Part shown: positions 16,445 through 29,290 of the stretch, piece by piece
How the letters are laid out: each line of letters starts with the position of its first letter
Numbering within the stretch: the stretch's first letter is position 1
Assembly: GCA_965223905.1 (NCBI GenBank)
Contig: CBDCXV010000002.1
Location: forward strand, 192,001-256,000
Direction: 5' to 3'
Source: Candidatus Latescibacterota bacterium
GTDB taxonomy: Bacteria > Latescibacterota > UBA2968 > UBA8231
DNA length: 64,000 nucleotides
Notes under the pieces: generated by a model
Database searches by the model: none
Told to the model about the DNA's origin: nothing
Seen by the model: only the letters and a program-made list of their open reading frames with translations
Made by a program: the position numbers and the translations under genes

Positions 16445-16580
16445 CTACCGCTCGAACTGCTCGAATTCGCTTGCCGCGTGGGAAATCCCTTCAAGGCAAA
16501 GGCGATCGATCAGGTCAAGGGAAGTCGAAGTCCATTCGTCGTCCTGGTGCTGCTGGTAGGTCCGGAAGGTCAGCTTTGCC
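16445..16580 (-). pseudogene. 3'-end remnant of a deleted gene
   Basis: Protein-like frame KLTFRTYQQHQDDEWTSTSLDLIDRLCLEGISHAASEFEQFER* with no start, joined to the PIN remnant. Confidence 0.35.
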
Positions 16581-16670
16581 GGCGCAGCAGATCGCCGTTA
16601 GTATCTCGATTGATGTGGGGAAGTACGCACCGAGTGGTCTCGGCATGGACTCGTCAAACAACAGCTTCAT
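16515..16670 (-). pseudogene. DUF5615 (VapC45-like PIN) toxin, truncated
   Basis: MKLLFDESMPRPL... overlapping the DUF433 gene; similarity is lost after about 30 codons. Confidence 0.7.
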
Positions 16671-16878
16671 CCGGGTCCCCGGTCAGCGCCACCTTCGCCG
16701 CTTTGAGCACCGCAATCGCCTGGTCGCGTGACACCGTCGGATAGCTGTCTAGGAAGTCATCGAGGCGATCCCCTGCTTCCAGGTGTTCGATCAGGATACG
16801 TATGGGGATCCTGGTTCCGGGAAACACCGGGGTTCCGCCGAGAATGCCCGGATATCTACCGATAACTTTGTCGTTCAT
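16654..16878 (-). CDS. DUF433 family antitoxin
   Basis: PGILGGTPVFPGTRIPI..L...L..G..LDDFLDSYPTVS. Confidence 0.9.
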   Translation of the reverse strand: MNDKVIGRYPGILGGTPVFPGTRIPIRILIEHLEAGDRLDDFLDSYPTVSRDQAIAVLKAAKVALTGDPDEAVV

Positions 16879-16917
16879 TTGATTCACCTTAGTTGTTCAA
16901 TTGGCACTTCGGGGCTG

Positions 16918-18126
16918 TTACCGATTTTTTGTGGAATATTTGGCAGGAGCGGTGAGTGTGCCCGAGAAGGCACGGTGCAAGATGCCGATGAACAGTGAAC
17001 TAATTCTGTCATGATTTGATCCCGTCAGATTCAGAATCTCCTTTGTCGCCTGTACCTGCATGGAGAATTCCTGCTGAAGTTCGAATGGCGGCACTGGAAT
17101 TTGGAGGGCCTTTAATCTGACGCCAGTCAAATGCGAGAAAGTCATTTTGGAGGCAGTGTCCCTTAATGCTCCGATATTTGCCAGTCGCCAGAGCAGAAAT
17201 ACGATATACTCAGGAGTCGCGGCATTTTGATAAGGACGCACCCTATGAAGAGCTTTCTGGAAGTAGCACTCCGGCAACTCATCGTTCCAGATCGCGCTGC
17301 GGCCCACTTCCCCGCCCTCACAAATTAGAATATCTCCCCTCCGAAGCCTGAACTCTTCACGGTCTGAGTCATTGAAGTCCATCTGGAGAACTTCCTGTAA
17401 ATCGATCCGATCCCAATAGACGTTTGCGTTTCGGAGGTAAGGGCGGGGATCCTTCCCAGTCTGCTGTTTCTGATCGAGCATTTTGCCGAGTCGAGATTCA
17501 CAAATCATGTCAAAACGTTTAATTGGCCAGCCCATCGGATTCGTTGCCGGGTCGCCGAACATCTTGATGAAAAGTGCAGGGAGGATGTGCCCGGCTTTGG
17601 CGTCGGCCTCCGCGCGGAGGCGACGGAGGCGGTAGGCTTGGTCGAGGATTTCAACGATGCGTCGTTGTTCGGAAAGCGGTGGAAGAGGGATTTCCATTTC
17701 CTTGATGTCGTTGTCGGAAACCGCCGGGTAATTCGCGCCTCTGACGCGTTCTGACAACACAGCGACAAAATCACGTGTGATCGTGAGATAAAACAAGAAG
17801 CGAGGTTCTACAACGGCATTATTTGCTCGTAGAACGCAAAAACCAGTTGAAGCAATTTGGCCATCGAGCTGGGCCGGAACCATAGCGACGGCGTTGAGGT
17901 TCGGACGTACCGTCGACACCAGGATGTCATCTTTTCGAATGTTTTTTCGTGCACGGCTCGGAGCATCAGCCCCTAACATGGTTTGATGTTCTGCAATTGT
18001 CTTATGGATACGGTCGATTCCGGCGATGTCAACGTAATTGAACTCGCCGGAAATCTCGCGTCGAGGATCGCATTGCTCAGTGGGTTCGCAGACGTCACTG
18101 ATAGTTGCGATGTCCCACCCCATCAC
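16918..18126 (-). CDS. hsdS: Type I R-M specificity subunit
   Basis: Two TRDs, IPLPPLSEQRRIV and IPVPPFELQ conserved regions, MFGDPATNPMGW. Confidence 0.93.
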   Translation of the reverse strand: MMGWDIATISDVCEPTEQCDPRREISGEFNYVDIAGIDRIHKTIAEHQTMLGADAPSRARKNIRKDDILVSTVRPNLNAVAMVPAQLDGQIASTGFCVLRANNAVVEPRFLFYLTITRDFVAVLSERVRGANYPAVSDNDIKEMEIPLPPLSEQRRIVEILDQAYRLRRLRAEADAKAGHILPALFIKMFGDPATNPMGWPIKRFDMICESRLGKMLDQKQQTGKDPRPYLRNANVYWDRIDLQEVLQMDFNDSDREEFRLRRGDILICEGGEVGRSAIWNDELPECYFQKALHRVRPYQNAATPEYIVFLLWRLANIGALRDTASKMTFSHLTGVRLKALQIPVPPFELQQEFSMQVQATKEILNLTGSNHDRISSLFIGILHRAFSGTLTAPAKYSTKNR

Positions 18127-18521: not shown

Positions 18522-18843
18522 AAAGCACCCGCCCTTCCCGCAGTGCCCGCGCCAACACATGGTTGAGGGAGTCGCGCCAGTAGTCCACGTCATCTCGAGA
18601 GTAGACAAGGACGTCGGCTGCGACGGGAAAACCCGCCAGCGCGTGGTAGAGTCTGACCATCTCTTTGTGGCGGCTTCGTTCCGGACCGAACGGCTCGGCT
18701 TCCAAGACCACCAGATCGACGTCCGATTCCTCTCGCTCGTCGCCCCGGCCACGGGAGCCAAAGAGGATCACCTGCTCGGGATCGACCTCGTCGACGATGG
18801 CCTGAACCATCCGGTCGATGAGGGTGTCGGTGATCCGGGTCAT
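18508..18843 (-). CDS. Minimal nucleotidyltransferase (MNT)
   Basis: VILFGSRGRGD....SDVDL; start overlaps the hsdM stop. Confidence 0.9.
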   Translation of the reverse strand: MTRITDTLIDRMVQAIVDEVDPEQVILFGSRGRGDEREESDVDLVVLEAEPFGPERSRHKEMVRLYHALAGFPVAADVLVYSRDDVDYWRDSLNHVLARALREGRVLYERP

Positions 18844-20486
18844 TGCTCCACCTCTTCGAGCAGTTTCTCCAGCCCGGCGGTAATCTCCCGCTCGATCGCC
18901 AGCACCTCGCGGATCAGCTCCGCGGGATCCTCGTCCGGAACCGGCTCGGCAACGCGGGGCTTGTAGCGGGAGGCGGCGAGGTTGAAGTCGTTCTCGACGA
19001 GGGTCTCGAACGAGGCCCACCAGCAGCGGGGTTCGTCGCTGCCCGCGTCGAGCACGGCGCCGGCCTCCTCGCCGGGTGGTTTCTCGAAGCGCGATTCCTT
19101 GTAATCGTTCCAGGCCGACAGTAGCCCGGGGATGTCGTTCTCCCCCGGTGTCTCGGGACGGCCGCCTCCCTGGATCTTGTCGGGGTCGTAGCCGTCGTTG
19201 CGGATCTCGTAGAACCACACCTGCTTCGTCGCCGGACGGCCTTCTTCCGGCTCCGTTGCCGGGCGCCGCAGGACGAGCACGGAGGTCTTGACGCCGGCGT
19301 ACGGTTTGAACACGCCGGCCGGCAGCGATACCACCGCCTGCAGCTCGTACTCCCGCAGGAGCTTCTCGCGCAGCTCCTTGTGAGCTCTCGTCGAGCCGAA
19401 GAGCGCGCCCTCGGGCACGACCACGGCGCAACGTCCCCCCGGCGCCAGGGAGCGCAGCATCAGTGCGATGAACAACAGCTCGCTCTTTCTCGATTTTGTT
19501 GGCAGATCCTGGCGAATTGAGTCCCTGGGGATCTGGCCGGCAAAAGGCGGGTTCGAGAGGATCACCGCGTAGCGCCGGTTCAGGTCGTCCTCGGTGAGTC
19601 CGCTCATCTCGGAGAGTACGTTGGCGCGCTTGAGGCGGGCATGGCGGATCCCGTGGAGCACGAGATTCATGACGGAGATCCGCATCATCTGGCGCGATAC
19701 GTCGGTGCCGTACATCGATGCCTCGAGCCGGCTCCAGTCGGGAATCCTTTCCCCCGGTCCCTTCCGGTAGGTCTGGAGATTGGGGATCTCCTTCTTCGCC
19801 TCCTCGAGCGTCTGCCCCCGCTTCTCGAGCCAGTCCTCGCCGTAGACCGGCACTTCCTGAATCTCCTCGCTGTAGCGGGCGAGGATGTGATCGACGACGT
19901 CGATCAGGAAACCGGCCGTGCCGCAGGCCGGGTCGTACACGGTGTCGCCCAGGTCGGGACCGGTCATCTCGACCATGAAGGCGCGGATCTGGCGCGGGGT
20001 GCGGAACTGGCCGTTCAGCGCCGACTGTCCGAGATGGGTGAGCAGGTATTCGAAGATGTCGCCCTTGATGTCGGGCCCGAGCTTGCGGAAGTCGATGGAG
20101 TCGAACATGTCGATCACCTGCTTGAGCACGTTCGGATCGACGATCTCGAGCACGGCGTCGCGAAAGTACTCTGCCACCTGCGGATCGTCCTTGACCAGCG
20201 ACGCCATGTACGGGAAGACCTCGTCGCGGACGAAGTTGCGCAGATCCTCTCCGCTCTTGAAGCGCCACTTGGACCAGCGGAAGCGCTCGGCCTGCGCGGG
20301 GAAGAGGAGGGCGCGGTTCCCGGCGCCGAGCCGGCCTTGGAGCTCGCGGGTGGTTTCCTCCTCGTCGAGGAGTTTCAGGTAGATGAGGTAGGAGATCTGC
20401 TCGATGTAGGTGACGGGATTGGTCACGCCACCGGCCCACAGGATGTCGGTGATCTGGTCGAGTTGGCGCCGCAGTGTCTGGTCCAT
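18840..20486 (-). CDS. hsdM: Type I R-M N6-adenine methyltransferase
   Basis: GQFRTPR, YDPACGTAGFL, ILSNPPF, VVPEG.LFG, GVFKPYAGV. Confidence 0.95.
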   Translation of the reverse strand: MDQTLRRQLDQITDILWAGGVTNPVTYIEQISYLIYLKLLDEEETTRELQGRLGAGNRALLFPAQAERFRWSKWRFKSGEDLRNFVRDEVFPYMASLVKDDPQVAEYFRDAVLEIVDPNVLKQVIDMFDSIDFRKLGPDIKGDIFEYLLTHLGQSALNGQFRTPRQIRAFMVEMTGPDLGDTVYDPACGTAGFLIDVVDHILARYSEEIQEVPVYGEDWLEKRGQTLEEAKKEIPNLQTYRKGPGERIPDWSRLEASMYGTDVSRQMMRISVMNLVLHGIRHARLKRANVLSEMSGLTEDDLNRRYAVILSNPPFAGQIPRDSIRQDLPTKSRKSELLFIALMLRSLAPGGRCAVVVPEGALFGSTRAHKELREKLLREYELQAVVSLPAGVFKPYAGVKTSVLVLRRPATEPEEGRPATKQVWFYEIRNDGYDPDKIQGGGRPETPGENDIPGLLSAWNDYKESRFEKPPGEEAGAVLDAGSDEPRCWWASFETLVENDFNLAASRYKPRVAEPVPDEDPAELIREVLAIEREITAGLEKLLEEVEQ

Positions 20487-20496
20487 CCCGTTCCTT

Positions 20497-23218
20497 TCAG
20501 CTCGCAGTCCTGAAAACGTCCTCGTCCAGCTGTCTCAACAACCTGCCTGAGCCCCTCCTCACCGAACAGCTCTACCCCCCTGCCGGCGGCGTCGAGAATC
20601 GACAGCGGCGGCTCGAACAGGTCGTTCAGGCGCACCCGGCCGGTGGCGATTCCCCGGTTTTTGAGCAGGCAGAGGTACTCCGCTTGCTGCGGGGTGAGGG
20701 CGCGCACTACGAGCCAGGCCCGGAAGGCCTCTTCCAGCTTCTCCTCGCGGCTCTTGATGCGCAGCCGCCCGAGCGCGGCGCGGATGAAGTCGACGAAGTT
20801 GCCTCCCGGGTCGCGGTAGGCGCGGCGCAGGTTCTCCTGGTTGAAGTAGTGCTCGGGCTGGTTGAGGCGGCGGGCAAGCTCCTCCTCTTCGGTCCGGCTC
20901 GAGATGCTCTTCGTCGCGCACCTTGCGGAGGAGCGGATCGTCGGCCGCCCGGGAGCGAATCGTCTCCACCCAGCGGGTTACGTACTCCTCCTTGTCGACG
21001 CGTTCTCCCTCGGGGCCGACCTCGACGTAGGTGACCGCCTCCAACCACTCGTCCTCCAGCCCGAGCTCGACGAGATCCCGCGTCTCCGGCCCTGTCCTGG
21101 GGCCGCTCGGGGCATGTCCTCCCGAAGTGCCGGTGAACACGTCGGTATCGCTGTCATTGAAGTACTGGTGGTTCCTGAAGAAGTCGTAGATGACAAATTT
21201 CCGCTTGTCGATATGCGGCGCAGTGCGCGTGCCCCGGCCTCGCATCTGCTGGTAGAGAATGGGGCTTCGCACCCGCCGGCAGAGCACGAGGTGGAGGATC
21301 TCGCGGCAGTCGAAGCCGGTGTCGAGCATTCCAACGCTCACCGCGACCATGGGCAAGGTTTCGGTCTTGAACCGGCGAATCAGGGTGTCCGGGTCGGCCA
21401 CGTCGGAGGTGATGACCTCGGCGTAGCGGCCCTTGTATTCGGGTGCAGCTCGTTCAAATACTGTGCCAGTCTCGCCGCGTGGTGCTTGGTGATGGCGAAG
21501 ACGATCGCCTTGCCCGGGCCCGGGTCCTGCCCGGGTGCCAGTTCCGCATAGCTCTCCCAGGCAAGCCGGTCGAACTCCTCCATCATCAGGCGGTTGGTCT
21601 CTTCGTTGGTCCAGCGCCGTTCGAACTCGACTGGGTCGTAGTGCTCGTCGTCGAGATCGGCCCCCTCGGCGAGGATCTCGGTGATGCCCGTGGCGAAGCG
21701 GTAGGGCACGAGGTATTCCTCGTTGAAGGCATCCTTTATTGAATAGGAGACGTCCGGTTTGCCCGGCTCGCACTGGTAGAAGTCGTAGGTGTTGCGCTCG
21801 ATGAAGCTTGCCGGCGTGGCCGTGAGTCCGATATGGAGGGCGTCGAATCGCGTGAGCGCTCCCTGCCAGGCGCCGTAGATGGAGCGGTGGCATTCGTCGG
21901 CGATGACGATGTCGAAGTAGCCGGCGGTATACTCGTCGACGCGGCCGATCATGGTCTGCAGCAGGGTAACGGTGATCTGCTGCTCCTGGCGCGCCATGCC
22001 GGGCCGCAGCCAGTAGCTCGAATACGCTCCCAAGACGTCCTGGATGGCTTCCAGGGCCTGCTTGGCGAGCTGGTCGCGGTCCGCCAGGAAGAGAATTCGC
22101 TCGGCCCAGCCTGCCTGCAGGAGTCGCTTCAGGTAGAGGCAGATGAGGTCGGTCTTGCCGGTACCGGTCGGCAGCTCGATCAGGAAGCGCCGCCTGCCGA
22201 GCTCCAGCGCGTGGTCGAGCGCCTGCATCGCGTCGGCCTGGTAGGGCCGCACCGTGCGCGTCTCCCCCTGGCGGATGTAGTGCTCCGGGATTTCGACGGT
22301 GGCGAGCGGCCTGCGCGTCTCCCGCGCCTCCACCATGCGCTCGAGGTCCCGCTGCGAGAAGAAGCCGGCGATGGGGCGGGCGTCGTCGTTCTGGTAGTCC
22401 CAGAAGTAGGTCAGCTCACCGTTGGTGAGGAAGATGAAGGGCGCTTCGAGCGCCTTGGCGTAGGGCAGGGCCTGTTGCTTCGCCACGTAGGGGTTGATGG
22501 CGTTCCTCTTGGCCTCGATGACGGCGAGCGGGCGGCCGCGCTGGTCGTAGAGGACGTAGTCGGCGCGGCCGGTTGAAGACTCGTCATCCGCGGCTTCGAG
22601 CTGGCAGACGAACTCGCCGATGACGCGGAGGTCCCCTTCTGCGCCTGGGTCGAAGACGAGGTCCTCGTAAGCCGGATCCGGATTGAGCGGCTGCAGCCGG
22701 ATTTCGCGATGGCTCCAGCTGTCCCCATCCGGTTCAGCTTCTTTCGTACTGCTGTATTTCTTGACGGAGAACTCGCCTCCGAGCGCCGGATCGGTGCAGC
22801 CGCGGTGCCAGACGAGGACGAGCTTTCCCTCCCTGGTCCCGCCGCGGTCCGTCCGAAACAGACAGTAGGAACCGTCGGGGATGGCCGGCTCCATAGAGTG
22901 CCCTTCGATGCGGGCAACGAAGTGGTCGCGGGTGAGCCGGACGCGGCCCGGCACCGCCATCCAGCCGATTTCGTCATGCTCGGTTCCGACGGTCTGGTCC
23001 GGGCTGAATTTTCCTGCCGCGGCAACGAGACCGTAGACCGGGGCGTGCGTTTCGAATGGCCTCGCTCCCACGCGGTCGACGATTCCGGCGCGACCGGGTG
23101 CGGAAGCCGCCTGGACCTCGGTACCGACCATCGACTGGTCGTCCGCGTCCCAGCCGGACTGCGCCAACAGTTCGTCGATAACTATGCGGGCGTCCGCCTC
23201 GTTTTCGCGCCGGTTCAT
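20497..23218 (-). CDS. hsdR: Type I R-M restriction subunit with inserted S24 peptidase domain (frameshifts near 21440, 20890 and 20535)
   Basis: NEADAR..ID, RADYVL, IEAKR, PTGTGKT, DECHRS, LTATP, VGMLDTGFD, QMRGRGTR; C-terminal part is split across frames. Confidence 0.88.
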
Positions 23219-23252
23219 CTTGTTCTTCCTCGTCCATGGGAAATTAGATGAA

Positions 23253-23268
23253 TGCAAAGCGCGTGCCA
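23253..23268 (-). promoter_or_regulatory. sigma54 (-24/-12) promoter of the hsdRMS operon
   Basis: Minus strand reads TGGCACGCGCTTTGCA, matching TGGCACG-N4-TTGCW; 34 nt upstream of the hsdR ATG, with a GAGGA RBS in between. Confidence 0.85.
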
Positions 23269-24777
23269 TCATTCGCCCACCCCGTAGCGTTTCATCCAGT
23301 TGGTGAGGGTCTGGTAGCTGGGCAGGCCGACGAGGTCGGCCGCCCTGGTCTTGTTGCCCTGCGCCTCGTCCAGGGCCCTCTCCAGGTAGTGGCGGGCCAC
23401 GGATGCCAGAATTCCGGGCAGGTCGAGACCGTCGCCGAGGGGCTTGCCAAGCACCGATCCCTTTTCGGTTTCGCCCGCGGGCAGGAGGGCGTCGCGAAGG
23501 TCCTCCGTCCTCAGCGTGGCTTCCGGGGTCCAGATCGCCGCGCGTCCCAGGGTGTTCTGCAGTTCGCGGACATTTCCGGGCCACGGGTGCGCGAGAAGAA
23601 GGTTTCTCGCTCCGGAAGAAAGTTCCTTCTCCACGAATCCCGGCTGCCCCCGCCCCTCCCGGTTCACGAGGGCGAGAATGTGATCGATCAGGATCGGGAG
23701 ATCGTCGCGCCGGTCCCGTAACGGGGGCAGTGGCAGCACCGCCACCGCCAGGCGGTGGAAGAGGTCTTCGCGAAAGGCGCCTGTCGACACTTCGGACAGG
23801 AGAGAGCGGTTGGTGGCGGCGATCATTCGCACGTCCACCTTGCGGCTGCGCGAGGTGCCGACCGGAAGCACCTCCCCCTCCTGGAGCGCGCGCAGCAGCT
23901 TCACCTGCGCGGGCTTGGGAAGCTCTCCCACCTCGTCGAGGAAGAGGGAGCCCCCGGATGCTTCCTCGAAATGGCCTTTGCGGTCCTTCACAGCCCCGGT
24001 GAAAGCCCCCTTTACGTGACCGAACAGCTCGGATTCGACGATCTCCGGAGGAATGGCGCCGCAGTTGACGGCCACGAAAGGCTTGTCGCGCCGCGGACTG
24101 GTGCGATGGATGGCGCGGGCGAGAAGCTCCTTGCCGGTACCTGTCTCCCCTTCGATCAGCACCGGCACGGAGCGCGGGGCGACCCGGCGCGCCCGCAGGA
24201 TCACGCGCTGCATGGCCTGGCTCCGGTGCAGGATCTCCTCGAATTCCGGCGCCTCCGGGGAGAGACCGGCGCTGAGGCGCTCGAGCTCCTCGTCCGGGCG
24301 GCGCAGCAGATCCGGAAGGAAGTCTGCTGAAATATCGAAGGGGACGGACACCGTGCTGACGCCGTGCTGCTTCGAGGACTCGATCAGCTCCGCGGGAAAG
24401 CGCGTCTTCGCGAGGATGATCCATACCGCGGCCATGGCCGGCGTGCCCGGGCTCAGGTGGAAAGTGAGCTCAGTGTCTCTGGGGCCGCCGGCCAAGGCCG
24501 TCTCGCAGGCGCGGACCGCGGCGACGTAGATCTCGCCGAATTGGGTAGGACCGGTGAGCTCTTCGTGGACCAGGTGAAGGGTGGGGCCTTCACATCGCTT
24601 TTCGAGCCACTGCCGGTAGGGGCGAACGGCGCCGGCCTCGTGGTCGAACAGCAGATAGGCGTCATCGAACTCGCGCTCCATCAGGGCCTGGGCAACCGGC
24701 CCGGCTCCGGTTGTCGGCTCCTCTTCGGGAGCGTCCAGGTCCGTATTTCCAATCCAGGTGATGAGGATTCTGCGCAT
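23269..24777 (-). CDS. sigma54 enhancer-binding protein with RtcR-like N-terminal domain
   Basis: [37 protein letters not shown], Fis-type HTH; N-terminal ITWIGNTD...HLSPGTP.M...W. Confidence 0.9.
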
Positions 24778-25195
24778 GGGAACAATGCTAACAAGAAAAA
24801 TTGTGATTCCGCAAGTTTGTTTATTCTTGATGTGGGGCGTGTGGCAGTAGGTAAGGTCTCTGACAGGGTTAGGCTACCAATTTGGCGAAATACACCGATT
24901 CTGGGCGGAGCACAGTCAGGTTCTACCCTGTAAGGGGAAAGAAGCCACTCACCACCTCGAAATGTCCGGATTGTCTTCCAATGGTGCTCGAGAAAGGGGG
25001 TGCGGAGGTTACAAGGACACGGAAATAGCCGTTATTTTGGCTCGAAATGGGCAATACATGGCTTTATAGCCGAAATATAAAATAATAATAGAAGAATTTA
25101 TCGCGATATAACTATTTATTTTTTGTTGAATCAAGGTATCTTTGATGGCAGGTCCCCAAACCTGGTGCCACAACCTGGAAAGGAGCCACCTCCTC

Positions 25196-26227
25196 ATGAA
25201 AATCGACCCCGAGAGCCTTCGATGCCTTCGCCAGAAAAAAAAGCTGTCACGCGCCCGGCTTGCCGAACGGTCTGGAATCGCGGTACGAACCATTCAGCGT
25301 CTGGAAAACGAACCGCAGCGATGTCAGAAATCGCGAGAGGACACGCTGAACCGGCTAGCCAAGGCACTCGATGTCGAAACGGATGTGCTTACCGGCCAGT
25401 CACCACTTCCCGAGTTTGATAAGCCCCCTGCCTCTGCCCCCAAGGGGGTCCAGATCGGCGCGCAGGTCGCTCCTTTGACCCGGCTCTTCTACGACCTCGT
25501 TAAGCGCCGATACGGCGTCAGCGTCACTGAGATCATCAACATGGCGCCGCTTTTCTTCGCGCTTCTGGCCGAGGGAAGTCTTGCTTGGAGGCGCATAAAA
25601 ATAGAGGAGGCAGAAGAAGCGAAAGGTCATTTGGAGGGGATCGAAGGGTTCTGGATTGGGAGCCTTGTATCTGCCTCAATAGTCATGGAAGAAGGGATTG
25701 GGGCGGAAATTGATTCCATCGAAAAAGCCGACCTTTTCGGAGAGCATCTCTTCAGGGTCGAATCTAGTTGGATGGATGATTTGTTCGACCCCTCCGCCAC
25801 CAACCCGTTCGCAAGCCATTTGCGTGGGTTGAAAGATGAACTCGCCAAACCCGGCGTCGTCGACGTGGGGGAGGGCGCTCTCGATTTCAGATCGTCGCTA
25901 AAATTCCCCGACTACGACATTTGCCGTGACGAACTCGACGACATGGCCAACGGTTCTTTCAACGCAAAGAAGGCTCTTGAAACTGGCTACGCGCGGCTCT
26001 CCGAAATTCCCGAGGAACTGATGGGAGAAGACGCCGGCGAGGAGCGCGCGAAATGGCTCGAAGACAGACTGCCGGATCAGTTTCAGAAAATCCTGAAGGA
26101 TGAGAAGGTTGGAGACGAGATCGTAGAAATCGTGGCAAAAGACCCAGAAGGCACTTGGAAAAGGGTCTTGGAAAAAGCGGGTGCCAATGAGGCGGATACC
26201 AGTAGTAAGGTGGGAGACAACCAATGA
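25196..26227 (+). CDS. XRE-family HTH protein with a large acidic C-terminal domain
   Basis: LRQKKKLSRARLAERSGIAVRTIQRLEN...LAKALDV; AGGAG upstream. Confidence 0.8.
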   Translation: MKIDPESLRCLRQKKKLSRARLAERSGIAVRTIQRLENEPQRCQKSREDTLNRLAKALDVETDVLTGQSPLPEFDKPPASAPKGVQIGAQVAPLTRLFYDLVKRRYGVSVTEIINMAPLFFALLAEGSLAWRRIKIEEAEEAKGHLEGIEGFWIGSLVSASIVMEEGIGAEIDSIEKADLFGEHLFRVESSWMDDLFDPSATNPFASHLRGLKDELAKPGVVDVGEGALDFRSSLKFPDYDICRDELDDMANGSFNAKKALETGYARLSEIPEELMGEDAGEERAKWLEDRLPDQFQKILKDEKVGDEIVEIVAKDPEGTWKRVLEKAGANEADTSSKVGDNQ

Positions 26228-26523
26228 GCATCGTCTATACACAACATGCCGAGACGCGCATGCAGCAGCGGAGCATTCGCGAAAAGGATATTCCACTCAT
26301 CCTCGCCTTGGGAACGCAAGTTGAGGACGAGACCTGGATTTTGCTCAGAAGAGATGTTGCGCGGGAAATCGAGATTCGCAAACGGGAGATCCAAAAGCTG
26401 AAACGGCTTGAAAACTGCAAGGTCGTCATGCTCGGCCGACACGTCATCACTGTCTATCCCTCACGGCCTGCGGATCAGAAACGAACACTACGCCGCGCCA
26501 GGCAGAACGGAATGGTGAAATGA
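26224..26523 (+). CDS. DUF4258-like small basic protein
   Basis: YTQHAETRMQQRSI...VITVY; ATGA overlap with the XRE gene. Confidence 0.7.
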   Translation: MSIVYTQHAETRMQQRSIREKDIPLILALGTQVEDETWILLRRDVAREIEIRKREIQKLKRLENCKVVMLGRHVITVYPSRPADQKRTLRRARQNGMVK

Positions 26524-26593: not shown

Positions 26594-28207
26594 TCACCCC
26601 CTTCCCAGCATGCGCACATCCCGCACCGTCTCGACGAGGCGGATGAACTCGCCCCGGTAGCCCCTCGGGTCATATCCCTGACCCCTCTCGGCAAGTCCGA
26701 TGACGCCCTTCAGCGTGTAGCCGCCGATATGGGGTGAGTCGCGGAGCAGCATGCCGAAGCCCGCCACCGCCGCGGCGAAGCGGAAATCGGTGGAGGGACC
26801 GGCAGGCGCGTCCACCACCGGCTGTGTAAGGAGGCGGCTCGCCGAACCGTCCGGGTCCTTGTAGCGGACCTTCACGTACATCAGCTCCTCCTCGAAGCCG
26901 CTGTCGACGGCGGTGTCGTCCTCGTCTTCCGGTTGGTAGCGGAGGTCGTCCACCGTGCCTCCGGGGACCGGGACGCCCGCGGGCACGACCTCGTACAGGG
27001 CGGTCACCGTGTGTCCGGCCCCCAGCTCGCCGGCGTCCTCGCTGTCGTCGTTGAAGTCCTCCGGGTCGAGCAGGCGGTTTTCGTAGCCGATCAGCCGGTA
27101 TCCGGCCGCCCGGGCAGGATTGAACTCGACCTGCACCTTCACATCCTTGGCAAGGGTGAGGAGGGTTCCGCCCATCTCCTCCACCAGGACCTTCCTGGCC
27201 TCCAGCAGGCTGTCGACGTAGTGGAAGTTGCCGTTCCCGTGGTCGGCGATCTGCTCCATCTTCGAGTCCTTCAGGTTCCCGGTGCCGAAGCCGAGAACCG
27301 TCAGGAAGATTCCGCTCTCCCGCTCCTTCTCGATGAGCCGGATCATCTCCTCGTCGCTGGATGCGCCGACGTTGAAGTCGCCGTCCGTCGCCAGGATGAC
27401 GCGGTTGTTGCCGCCGTCGATGTGGTGCTCGCGCGCGACCTGGTAGGCGAGCCTGATTCCCTCTCCGCCCGCGGTGCTGCCGCCGGCCCGGAGCTCTTCC
27501 AGGGCGGCGAGGATCTCCTCCCGGGCGTCTCCCGGCGTCGAGGGCAGAACCAGCCCGGCGGCGCCGGCATAGACCACGATCGCCACCCGGTCCTCGGCCC
27601 TGAGCTGCTCGACGAGGAGCGCGAAAGCCTTCTTGAGCAGGGGCAGCTTGTCGGGTGACTCCATCGACCCGGACACGTCGATCAGGAAGACCAGGTTCCC
27701 CGGCGGCAGGTCATCGGTGTCCATCGACCGCGCCCTGAGGCCGATGCGCACCAGCCGGTGTTGCGGTTTCCAGGGCGCCTCCCACACCTCGGTGGCGACG
27801 GCGAAGGGGTGCTCTCCCACAACCTCGTCCCACTCGTAGGGGAAGTAGTTGATCATCTCCTCGATCCGTACCGCGTCGATCGGCGGCCGCTGTCCATTCT
27901 CGATGAAGCGGCGCACGTTGGCGTACGAGGCCCGGTCGACGTCGATGGAGAAGGTCGACAGCGGCGACTCGCTCACGAGCTGGAAACCGTTCTCGCCGAT
28001 GGGGGCGTACGACTCGGTGTTGGAGTAGGAGGGGGGAGATATGTGCCTGTAGTCCGCGGCGGCCTCAGGGGCGGAGGACATCGACTCGGACGCCGGCGTC
28101 ATCGGGGAATTGCGGGTGCATGAGGCAAGGGCGAGGAAGCAGAGAAGGGACGAGGCCAACCCGGTGGTGGTGGCGGACCTGTTGGGTCGGGTGGGGTTCG
28201 AGTTCAT
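26594..28207 (-). CDS. YfbK-like VWA lipoprotein (vWF_A + VWA + DUF3520)
   Basis: PLSTFSIDVD.ASY, VRIEEMINYF, DVSGS MIDAS, TDGDFNVG, YRLIGYENR; LASC lipobox. Confidence 0.9.
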   Translation of the reverse strand: MNSNPTRPNRSATTTGLASSLLCFLALASCTRNSPMTPASESMSSAPEAAADYRHISPPSYSNTESYAPIGENGFQLVSESPLSTFSIDVDRASYANVRRFIENGQRPPIDAVRIEEMINYFPYEWDEVVGEHPFAVATEVWEAPWKPQHRLVRIGLRARSMDTDDLPPGNLVFLIDVSGSMESPDKLPLLKKAFALLVEQLRAEDRVAIVVYAGAAGLVLPSTPGDAREEILAALEELRAGGSTAGGEGIRLAYQVAREHHIDGGNNRVILATDGDFNVGASSDEEMIRLIEKERESGIFLTVLGFGTGNLKDSKMEQIADHGNGNFHYVDSLLEARKVLVEEMGGTLLTLAKDVKVQVEFNPARAAGYRLIGYENRLLDPEDFNDDSEDAGELGAGHTVTALYEVVPAGVPVPGGTVDDLRYQPEDEDDTAVDSGFEEELMYVKVRYKDPDGSASRLLTQPVVDAPAGPSTDFRFAAAVAGFGMLLRDSPHIGGYTLKGVIGLAERGQGYDPRGYRGEFIRLVETVRDVRMLGRG

Positions 28208-28299
28208 GAGATCGCCTCTGGAGGAAGGGGTTGTTGAGAGGGAGCTGCCGCAACGGAGTCAGGATTCCCGGTGCGCGGGGCGCTGGCGGTCAGTCATCG

Positions 28300-29290
28300 T
28301 AAACGCAGGTCGCGCGGCCCGGAGGGCGCGGGCGGAAGGGCGCCAACCGGGAACATTGCTGGCTGTCGATTTTCTCACCCTGGTCGAAGACGAGACGCGG
28401 CTCGGCGCGCTGCGGTTCAAGGAGGCCGGCGGCGGCCCGTTTCTCACCTCGACCGGCAGGCAGGTGCCGCCGGTTGTCGACCTGCCGCGGCTGCTGTCCG
28501 CCACCACCCGCGTCATCGATGCCAACGAGACCGACGACGACCTGCGGTTGATCCTGGCCCCCGGCGCCTCGCTGGGGGGGGCTCGTCCCAAAGCCACGGT
28601 CCGCGACCGGGACGGGCACCTGCTGATCGCCAAGTTCCCGCGCCGGGACGACGACTGGCCGGTGACGCGATGGGAAGCGGCCACCATGGCCCTGGCCGAG
28701 GCGGCGGGGGTCCGGGTCGCGCCGTTCCAGCTCCTGCAGGTAGCGAACAGCCCCGTACTCATGGCCCGCGCTTCGACCGCAGGCAGGGCCGGCGTATCCC
28801 TTTCATGTCGGCGCTCACCGCAATCGAGGGGTCCGACAACGAGATGCGAAGCTATCTGGAGGTCGCCGAGTTCCTGCGGCGGGAGGGACTGAAGGTGAAC
28901 GAGGACCTGGGTCAGCTCTGGCGCCGGATCGTGTTCAACATGCTGGTGTCCAACACCGACGACCATCTGCGCAACCACGGCTTTCTCCGGGAGCAGAACG
29001 GCTGGCGGCTTTCACCGGCGTATGACCTCAACCCGGTGCCGGCCGACGTGAAGCCGCGCGTCCATGCGCTCGCGATCGACGAGACGGACGGCACGGCGTC
29101 CCTCGATACCGCATTGGAGGTCGCGCCGATGTTCGGCATTACGGGGCAGGCGGCGCGCGCGACAGCAGCCGAGGTGGGCAGGGCGGTCCGTGGCTGGCGG
29201 GATGCGGCGGCCGGCATCGGCATTTCGGCGAATGAAATCGAGCGGATGTCCAGCGCCTTCGATCACGACGACCTCGAGGCGGCGATCTGA
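28300..29290 (+). pseudogene. HipA-like kinase toxin, 5'-truncated and frameshifted
   Basis: SLGGARPKA, IAKFP, NTDDHLRNHGF, LSPAYDLNP; N-terminal part and hipB are absent. Confidence 0.8.

Follow-up and report, generated by a model that had tools for sequence, protein, structure and literature searches.

We analysed a stretch of 64,000 nucleotides from the genome of a Candidatus Latescibacterota bacterium (contig CBDCXV010000002.1, positions 192,001 to 256,000; hereafter the window) and find that its type I restriction subunit gene, hsdR, encodes a peptidase module of the S24 family (i.e. of the LexA/UmuD/cI type) inside the nuclease fold of the protein. This is a conserved and apparently undescribed design: a restriction subunit family found in several phyla carries a putative SOS sensor-protease within its nuclease fold, and this module also forms the tail of hundreds of other restriction enzymes. 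To our knowledge, how cells guard against their own restriction after DNA damage is understood for only a few Escherichia coli systems, via ClpXP. If the module cleaves on filaments of RecA on single-stranded DNA (ssDNA; such filaments are hereafter RecA*), the SOS signal would have a direct link to restriction, made at the level of protein, and a regulatory protease would, unusually, be inserted in the very catalytic fold that it controls.

An S24 peptidase module in HsdR

The hsdR gene starts at the ATG at 23218 (MNRRENEADARIVIDELL...), a start backed by the N-termini of homologues and by a GAGGA site. Numbered from this ATG, the key motifs are PVYGLVAAA68G69, IEGHS108MEP, SVK153KY, GRAD220YVL and IE235AK237, which reproduces all residue numbers of an initial annotation of this DNA (i.e. 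A68-G69, S108, K153, D220, E235 and K237). That annotation had proposed an S24 layout in HsdR, and the layout is real: Pfam Peptidase_S24 (PF00717) matches residues 60–204 above its cut-off and over the complete profile (positions 1–116 of 116; E 9e-8, 32.3 bits versus a cut-off of 23.3), and the Ala-Gly pair, the Ser and the Lys are strongly conserved. The spacing from Ala68 to Ser108 is 39 residues and that from Ser108 to Lys153 is 45; LexA, cI and UmuD have Ala-Ser and Ser-Lys spacings like these, the ranges expected of the family being ∼35–40 and ∼37–45 residues.

Structure prediction, which had been suggested as a check, recovers the LexA fold. In the AlphaFold2 model of residues 1–310 (alignment of 85 rows; mean predicted local distance difference test (pLDDT) 74.5, predicted template modelling score 0.55), the 10-residue block means across residues 51–210 are mostly 86–95, with dips at 61–80 and 141–150, and the linkers that flank the module (residues 35–41 and 211–217) fall below a pLDDT of 50. 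A Foldseek search of this model against the PDB places the LexA C-terminal domain first (1jhe_A, E 6.9e-7) and also returns LexA on the RecA filament (8trg), lambda cI (2ho0, and 8gmu_A with a template modelling (TM) score of 0.79 on the target) and UmuD (1umu and 8gmt). These LexA, cI and UmuD matches range from E 7e-7 to 4e-3, with TM scores of 0.72–0.79 on the target and identities of 15–24%; the HsdR fragment 3h1t stands below them, at rank 33 of the PDB listing. At the sequence level, the closest S24 entry in a profile search of the PDB is lambda cI (E 0.067), a single-sequence PDB search with the insert as query returned no S24 entry (best E 0.11, an unrelated transaminase), and PADLOC holds no model matching the S24 insert.

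The two predicted cleavage products (residues 1–68 and 69–310) were also folded as separate chains, together with three controls. The complex prediction scored 0.73 and the best control 0.00; of 80 solved complexes, 58 attain the former mark, as do 2 of 110 mismatched pairs. The runs share at least 81% of contacts, with a partner pLDDT of at least 73. Because the two chains together make up a single protein and have counterparts among the solved structures of LexA and HsdR, this result reports continuity of the fold rather than binding after cleavage. In this prediction, residues 54–68 lie against residues 81–110, 113–120, 135, 150–152 and 177, i.e. in the cleft around Ser108 and Lys153. The module thus belongs to the S24 family by its PF00717 match, its G-x-S-M Ser and downstream Lys, an Ala-Gly bond predicted in the cleft and the fold of the LexA C-terminal domain, and we consider it very probable that HsdR carries a genuine, catalytically competent S24 module.

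A nuclease fold interrupted by the module

Alignments to known HsdR nucleases resume only after the module. Pfam HSDR_N covers residues 203–279, which correspond to profile positions 114–196 of 198 only; the alignment to the NCBIfam EcoAI/FtnUII HsdR family (E 6.4e-56) begins at residue 214, i.e. profile position 47; and 3h1t, a Vibrio vulnificus HsdR fragment, is aligned by a PDB profile search from profile position 210, which is residue 69 of its chain. The N-terminal 40 residues alone match only HsdR nuclease models, at the N-terminal ends of those models (Pfam HSDR_N positions 3–34, E 0.18; NCBIfam NF008521 positions 232–256, E 0.003), and have no match in the PDB. Since the HSDR_N, EcoAI and 3h1t alignments resume at residues 203–214 and the first 40 residues match HsdR models, ∼145–165 residues have been added inside the nuclease. 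The displacement of the strand that bears the catalytic Asp conforms to this: it begins at ∼74 in the 3h1t chain and at ∼53 in the EcoAI profile, versus residue 220 here.

In the complex prediction, residues 6–38 touch residues 217–224, 233–239, 252–257, 265–270 and 285–289, which include the D220 and E235xK237 strands, and the lowest expected error falls on the pairing of residues 30–33 with 220–224. In the predicted structure, the nuclease is accordingly built from residues 6–38 plus 217–289, and the intervening S24 domain is looped out. The alignments, the N-terminal matches and the predicted contacts therefore agree with the proposal that the insertion lies inside the HsdR nuclease. Residues on both sides of the insert are also conserved. 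An alignment of 23 sequences shows no variation at D220, E235, Q249 and Y253 and a conservation of at least 90% at K237, and in the N-terminal piece E7, D9, A10, R11, I14, L18 and W23 are invariant in 23 of 23 sequences.

Apart from the insert, the gene product is a type I HsdR, with a PD-(D/E)xK nuclease that includes a QxxxY motif, a superfamily 2 motor, an EcoEI_R_C tail and adjoining hsdM and hsdS genes. Pfam identifies ResIII (residues 322–470), Helicase_C and EcoEI_R_C, with the motor and tail spread over three frames in the window. The score for NCBIfam NF046051 (190.2 bits versus a cut-off of 550) refers to the window's first frame of 612 aa only and falls short of this cut-off; we call the gene EcoAI-like rather than an equivalog. 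Competing reading frames over hsdR were dismissed: the plus-strand frames at 22709–23251 and 21833–22576 are GC-rich shadow frames, and a minus-strand frame of 1014 codons reaching 24424 is an extension due to high GC, its upstream part lying out of frame over the gene of the sigma-54 activator.

HsdR homologues with the same insert

A search with residues 1–300 scored 8000 candidates, of which 1687 proteins matched at E ≤ 0.001. The counts given here refer to the 120 of them that were listed, which are 71–99% identical over residues 1–300 and mostly 905–933 residues long (i.e. a type of ∼906 aa). Their source names include Acidobacteriota, Nitrospiraceae, Planctomycetota, Gemmatimonadota, Gammaproteobacteria and a Thermoplasmatota archaeon. 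A hidden Markov model built from the module finds it in all 120. Ser108 and Lys153 are each present in 120/120, Gly69 in 119/120 and Ala68 in 115/120, the remaining five having Gly at this position. The comparison with homologues that had been proposed for the Ala-Gly/Ser/Lys set thus bears out both the insert and its conservation.

Species-representative genomes contain 148 stretches that encode a relative, of which 80 were kept. In 15 of these 80 loci (L009–L023, 64–96% identical), the helix and the module stand at the start of an hsdR gene; their sources are Latescibacterota, Aminicenantes, Thermoanaerobaculia, Vicinamibacteraceae, Spirochaetaceae, Ectothiorhodospiraceae and metagenome-assembled genomes of other Gammaproteobacteria. 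An open frame of 688–706 codons follows the module in 11 of the 15, while two are truncated and two lie at contig ends. The presence of the insert at the same place in all 120 listed homologues and in these 15 loci indicates that it is due neither to chance nor to a chimera.

The same S24 subtype on other enzymes

Used alone as a query against 1.84 billion cluster representatives, the module gave 1545 matches at E ≤ 0.001, 866 at ≤ 1e-10 and 43 at ≤ 1e-30. Only a few of the 150 matches listed are embedded in HsdR; the C-terminus lies within 25 residues of the module in 133 of the 151 domain rows of these 150 proteins. After removal of 12 rows with partial coverage, the remaining 139 representatives have the Ser in 139/139, the Lys in 138/139, Ala (120) or Cys (14) at P1 and Gly at P1' in 126. 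In 20 proteins inspected with Pfam, the partners are Type ISP enzymes, SLFN/DUF2075 helicases (one with GIY-YIG), McrBC, ResIII/SNF2, PLD-helicase, DEAD-MZB-REase, methyltransferase-HNH and MmeI-like enzymes, and Peptidase_S24 stands alone in three of the 20. The statement in the initial annotation that S24 fusions to other defence helicases exist is therefore substantiated, by C-terminal copies on several families. Similarly, in the 65 loci that remain without L009–L023, a stop codon follows within 27 codons of the module in 61.

A FastTree phylogeny of 161 modules was built from every sixth of the 120 HsdR homologues (20 sequences), the 139 representatives, the window and one tail module from the window's own genome. 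A single clade of 27 rows, with a Shimodaira–Hasegawa-like support of 99, unites all HsdR-internal copies; because the tree is unrooted, no direction of transfer is claimed. The hsdR cassette spreads horizontally, and the HsdR family that carries the module is monophyletic and widely transferred.

A second, independent internal S24 insertion occurs in a HindI-like HsdR (L067:5927–9673, plus strand), which is one open frame of 1249 codons with HSDR_N at residues 51–258, the module at 369–499, SWI2_SNF2 at 507–733 and a T1RH-like_C domain. This module has LKAAAG at 371–374, S410 and K455, and follows a YHQFHAV helix ahead of the bulk of the motor; its placement relative to the ATP-binding motifs is our own reading.

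The window's genome (7.92 Mb, 11 contigs, 93.6% complete and 5.1% contaminated) has recA, a canonical lexA with a VAA/G site, clpX and rpoN. It encodes four S24 proteins, and this S24 subtype, with AAAG, GRSM and TVKRY motifs, forms the C-terminus of two further defence enzymes from this genome (Table 1). Each of recA and clpX has two near-equal full-length matches on different contigs. The contamination of 5.1% implies that part of the assembly may derive from a second organism.

Frameshifts in the window's copy of hsdR

The reading of hsdR as an intact gene holds through the module and the nuclease core and fails further downstream, where three single-base indels break the frame: a G lost at ∼21443, a C gained at ∼20892 and an A gained at ∼20533, as located by comparison with homologues and with locus L009, which is 96% identical. 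None of the three sits in a long homopolymer. The activator gene and hsdM have no frame-breaking indel relative to L009, and the 1980- and 1180-codon genes elsewhere in the same genome are also open. Four public metagenome runs, available as Logan contigs (i.e. short pieces with many variants), contain a frame-restoring variant at all three indel sites in some contigs, and no contig identical to the window across the three sites was found in these four runs. The window's hsdR has probably been inactivated (R- M+, i.e. restriction negative and modification positive), an assembly error being the alternative. The frameshifts lower the value of this locus, while intact homologues exist.

Some related sequences also have irregular structures. 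A contig of run X13 joins 22569 to 23168 and thereby skips 598 bases, i.e. a linker and the S24 module; it may represent an insert-free relative, with only 34 letters fitting on one side. Among the 120 listed homologues, 9 of the 12 shorter ones inspected appear to have out-of-frame ends, at different places (P0004, P0007, P0009, P0036, P0043, P0050, P0073, P0109 and P0118). Another, P0005 (453 aa), has the HsdR N-terminus and the S24 module running into HTH_3 sequence, as if the gene had been interrupted.

Operon organization and genomic setting

The cassette has the order CARF/sigma-54 activator, sigma-54 promoter, hsdR, hsdM and hsdS, in some cases with a HEPN gene ahead of hsdS (Table 1). 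In the 15 related loci, the activator is directly upstream of hsdR in 10 and hsdM downstream in 12, and the HEPN gene is found in only four. In principle, a HEPN RNase could make the cyclic-phosphate RNA ends that CARF domains of the RtcR type sense.

The activator contains Sigma54_activat, AAA_lid_14 and HTH_8 domains by Pfam and a GAFTGA motif. PADLOC RtcR_PspF2--CARF_AAA_HTH matches it over its full length (E 2.1e-196). The best NCBIfam model is RtcR (E 2.6e-100, 336.8 bits versus an equivalog cut-off of 650) and, among the 25 of 29 NCBIfam models shown, RtcR extends furthest into the N-terminal domain; bare AAA+ models, PspF and NifA among them, start at residue ∼175–183. The protein is not assigned to the RNA-repair RtcR regulators, with the equivalog score missed and hsdR downstream instead of rtcBA. 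The AlphaFold model of its residues 1–180 (pLDDT 73, predicted template modelling score 0.72) resembles the CARF domains of Csm6, Can2, Card1, Cami1 and ring nucleases. It was this structure prediction that gave the CARF fold; DUF5441, the only Pfam match to the same domain, was rejected as chance level. Pairing of CARF regulators with systems of the restriction–modification (R-M) type was predicted by Makarova et al. 2014 (PMC4012209) and Bell et al. 2024 (PMC11090510), and is context here rather than a new result.

The putative sigma-54 promoter, TGGCACgcgctTTGCA (TGGCAC-N5-TTGCA), begins on the base after the activator stop codon and ends ∼35 nt before the hsdR ATG, with the GAGGA site between. 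It is the sole match with no mismatch to the sigma-54 consensus among 18 matches in the window, and its -24 GG and -12 GC elements are correctly spaced. TGGCAC-N5-TTGC recurs without mismatch at -46/-49 in 10 of the 15 loci, with a variable spacer sequence, and has one mismatch in L011 and two in L012; three gammaproteobacterial loci have neither this element nor the activator. Activator and promoter are thus retained in most related loci, across phyla.

The GC content falls to 0.50–0.58 at 24500–26500 and at 16500–18000 (hsdS), compared with ∼0.65–0.70 around these stretches.

Table 1. Features of the hsdR locus, its neighbours in the window, and two related defence genes on other contigs of the same genome
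Feature	Position	Strand	Basis or remark
hsdR, EcoAI-type type I restriction subunit	20497..23218	minus	ATG 23218, stop 20497; Pfam, NCBIfam
N-terminal nuclease piece, residues 6–38 (helix 7–20, strand ∼29–34)	23105..23203	minus	Conservation, HsdR models, contacts
S24 (LexA/UmuD/cI-type) peptidase module, residues ∼57–208	22595..23050	minus	Pfam PF00717, Foldseek, conservation
Predicted scissile bond Ala68-Gly69 (VAAA/G)	23012..23017	minus	Conservation and complex prediction
Ser108	22895–22897	minus	Numbering from ATG 23218
Lys153	22760–22762	minus	Numbering from ATG 23218
PD-(D/E)xK core after the insert (D220, E235-x-K237, Q249xxxY253)	22370..22579	minus	Pfam HSDR_N, conservation
CARF-AAA+(GAFTGA)-HTH sigma-54 activator, RtcR_PspF2 type, P0274, 502 aa	23269..24777	minus	Pfam, NCBIfam, PADLOC, AlphaFold
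Putative sigma-54 promoter	23253..23268	minus	Consensus and conservation
hsdM, 548 aa, intact	18840..20486	minus	Pfam HsdM_N, N6_Mtase
HEPN-domain gene between hsdM and hsdS, 212 aa	18123..18761	minus	Pfam HEPN, E 2.6e-12
hsdS, 402 aa	16918..18126	minus	Pfam Methylase_S, PADLOC Specificity_I
XRE-type HTH gene, 361 aa	25142–26227	plus	Within the low-GC stretch 24500–26500
YfbK/VWA gene	26594–28207	minus	
HipA_C kinase gene	28271–29290	plus	
DEAD/Helicase_C/MZB protein, 1980 aa	L007:1266–7208, contig C9	minus	Beside an Eco57I-like methylase
Second HsdR, 1180 aa	L008:1155–4697, contig C2	minus	HSDR_N, SWI2_SNF2, T1R_D3

Possible function of the embedded module

LexA, cI and UmuD cleave themselves, stimulated by RecA-ssDNA filaments, and the N-terminal fragment of LexA ends in VAA and is taken by ClpX via that end. 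Our preferred reading, to which we give about an even chance, is that HsdR likewise cleaves itself on a signal, so that its nuclease is disabled while methylation continues, i.e. a restriction alleviation built into the enzyme. The signal would most likely be RecA-ssDNA filaments, as for LexA, cI and UmuD; by this analogy, we lean slightly towards RecA* as the trigger. Cleavage at Ala68/Gly69 would free a piece of 68 residues that comprises the first nuclease helix and strand and ends in ...VAAA-COOH. That the net effect is to switch restriction off appears about as probable as not.

Because the products are predicted to be tightly packed, a further step after cleavage seems necessary. The freed tail would probably be pulled out, possibly by ClpXP, which acts in this way on the LexA N-fragment; extraction of residues 1–68 would strip the helix and strand from the nuclease core, although both suggestions are speculative. 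LexA self-cleavage exposes motifs for Lon and ClpXP, as outlined in a preprint (bioRxiv 10.1101/2020.07.07.191791), and ClpXP mediates the damage-induced alleviation of restriction by type IA and IB enzymes, as outlined in PMC3874165. Alleviation is favoured for three reasons: (i) DNA damage is known to lead to a shutdown of type IA and IB enzymes, in the account just cited; (ii) the partners of the module include many unrelated nucleases, and its effect should accordingly be a generic one; and (iii) an R-M operon induced by a signal would meet under-methylated host DNA at each induction, much like a system that is newly establishing itself.

Several points weigh against this reading. The three frameshifts mean that nothing operates here as assembled. 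In 61 of the 80 loci the module is C-terminal and its cleavage would remove only the module, so that the logic shared by these enzymes may not be the splitting of a nuclease. The predicted interface between the two products is large (215–229 contacts), and cleavage alone may therefore not split the nuclease and may have no effect. Dependence on RecA* is assumed from family membership, for a module that is only 15–24% identical to LexA, cI and UmuD in the structural alignments.

A different proposal, which we regard as doubtful, is that the S24 module acts as a portable degron triggered by DNA damage: a cut stimulated by RecA* would give the segment upstream of it an ...AAA-COOH end, similar to that of the ssrA tag and of the LexA N-fragment, by which ClpXP would pull. 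Enzymes tagged at the C-terminus would then be destroyed whole, whereas this HsdR would lose only its first nuclease helix and strand. Its cutting would be disarmed with the motor and methyltransferase kept, which would make it a self-contained counterpart of alleviation by ClpXP, and the switch would suit a restriction system whose own induction runs via a CARF/sigma-54 sensor.

The main rival to built-in alleviation is an activation switch, in which the S24 module holds the nuclease inactive, as in a zymogen, and self-cleavage turns restriction on in infected cells only. RecA filaments or ssDNA from phage replication would be the trigger, after which the N-terminal helix and strand would settle on the core or a steric block would go. 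The conversion of UmuD to UmuD' is a precedent for an activating S24 cleavage, gating of the operon by a CARF activator and a sigma-54 promoter fits a system that is off until needed, and the two linkers have low confidence in the model. However, residues 6–38 are already seated on the nuclease core in the uncleaved model, where the expected error is low; for a module that is C-terminal on many unrelated enzymes, it is difficult to envisage a single inhibitory contact common to all; and a nuclease activated during host DNA damage would endanger the cell. We consider activation unlikely.

Equally improbable, in our judgement, is a role without regulated self-cleavage, in which the module would serve as a domain for dimerisation or for binding of the RecA filament, would cleave or be cleaved in trans (with other S24-tagged enzymes or LexA as partners) or would undergo constitutive maturation by cleavage. 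The C-terminal domains of LexA, cI and UmuD dimerise and UmuD cleaves in trans; a type I complex has two HsdR subunits, and the genome has four S24 proteins. Pure binding would nevertheless not keep the Ser, the Lys and the Ala-Gly pair near-invariant in the 120 listed homologues and the 139 representatives, and the strand with the scissile bond is predicted to occupy the cleft of the module itself. Finally, an artefact, i.e. a chimeric assembly or a mis-called frame that only appears to place the insert in HsdR, is hardly credible: despite the three indels in the window's gene, the many variants of this stretch in the metagenomic runs and the one contig that skips 22569–23168, the same architecture comes from several sources in all 120 listed homologues and from different phyla in the 15 genome loci (11 of them with the uninterrupted 688–706 codons), and a single open frame in the window itself extends from the helix via the S24 module to the core of the nuclease.

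Comparison with known systems

A full-text literature search, which covered main texts, returned no description of S24 in HsdR or in other restriction enzymes. The accessible text of Makarova 2014 (PMC4012209) and Bell 2024 (PMC11090510) makes no mention of S24 in regulated HsdR, and the 'S24' of Millman et al. refers to table numbers rather than to the domain. Makarova 2014 and Bell 2024 describe RtcR-like CARF-AAA+-HTH regulators beside R-M or CoCoNuT systems, of the same architecture and family as the activator found here.

The HsdR subunit resembles those of EcoAI and EcoEI (type IB) in its PD-ExK plus QxxxY nuclease, DECH motor, EcoEI_R_C tail and hsdR-hsdM-hsdS operon, but differs from them by the ∼145–165 extra residues that separate its first strand from the PD motif. 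The module itself shares with LexA, lambda cI and UmuD (MEROPS S24, PF00717) the fold, the G-x-S-M Ser, the downstream Lys and the upstream Ala-Gly, and the VAAA/G site of HsdR resembles the VAA/G site of LexA in its own genome. In contrast to these three proteins, the module is attached neither to a DNA-binding domain nor to a polymerase-accessory domain, but is spliced into a catalytic fold. The C-terminal S24 modules of restriction and defence enzymes belong to the same subtype (40–55% identity); here, by contrast, the module is N-proximal and within the nuclease fold, so that a cut would free a piece of the catalytic domain and not the module. The proposed role, i.e. turning restriction off after damage, would be that of ClpXP for type IA and IB enzymes, as outlined in PMC3874165. 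In that known alleviation system, ClpXP recognises the translocating HsdR without any self-cleavage, whereas the HsdR described here would carry the switch within its own nuclease.

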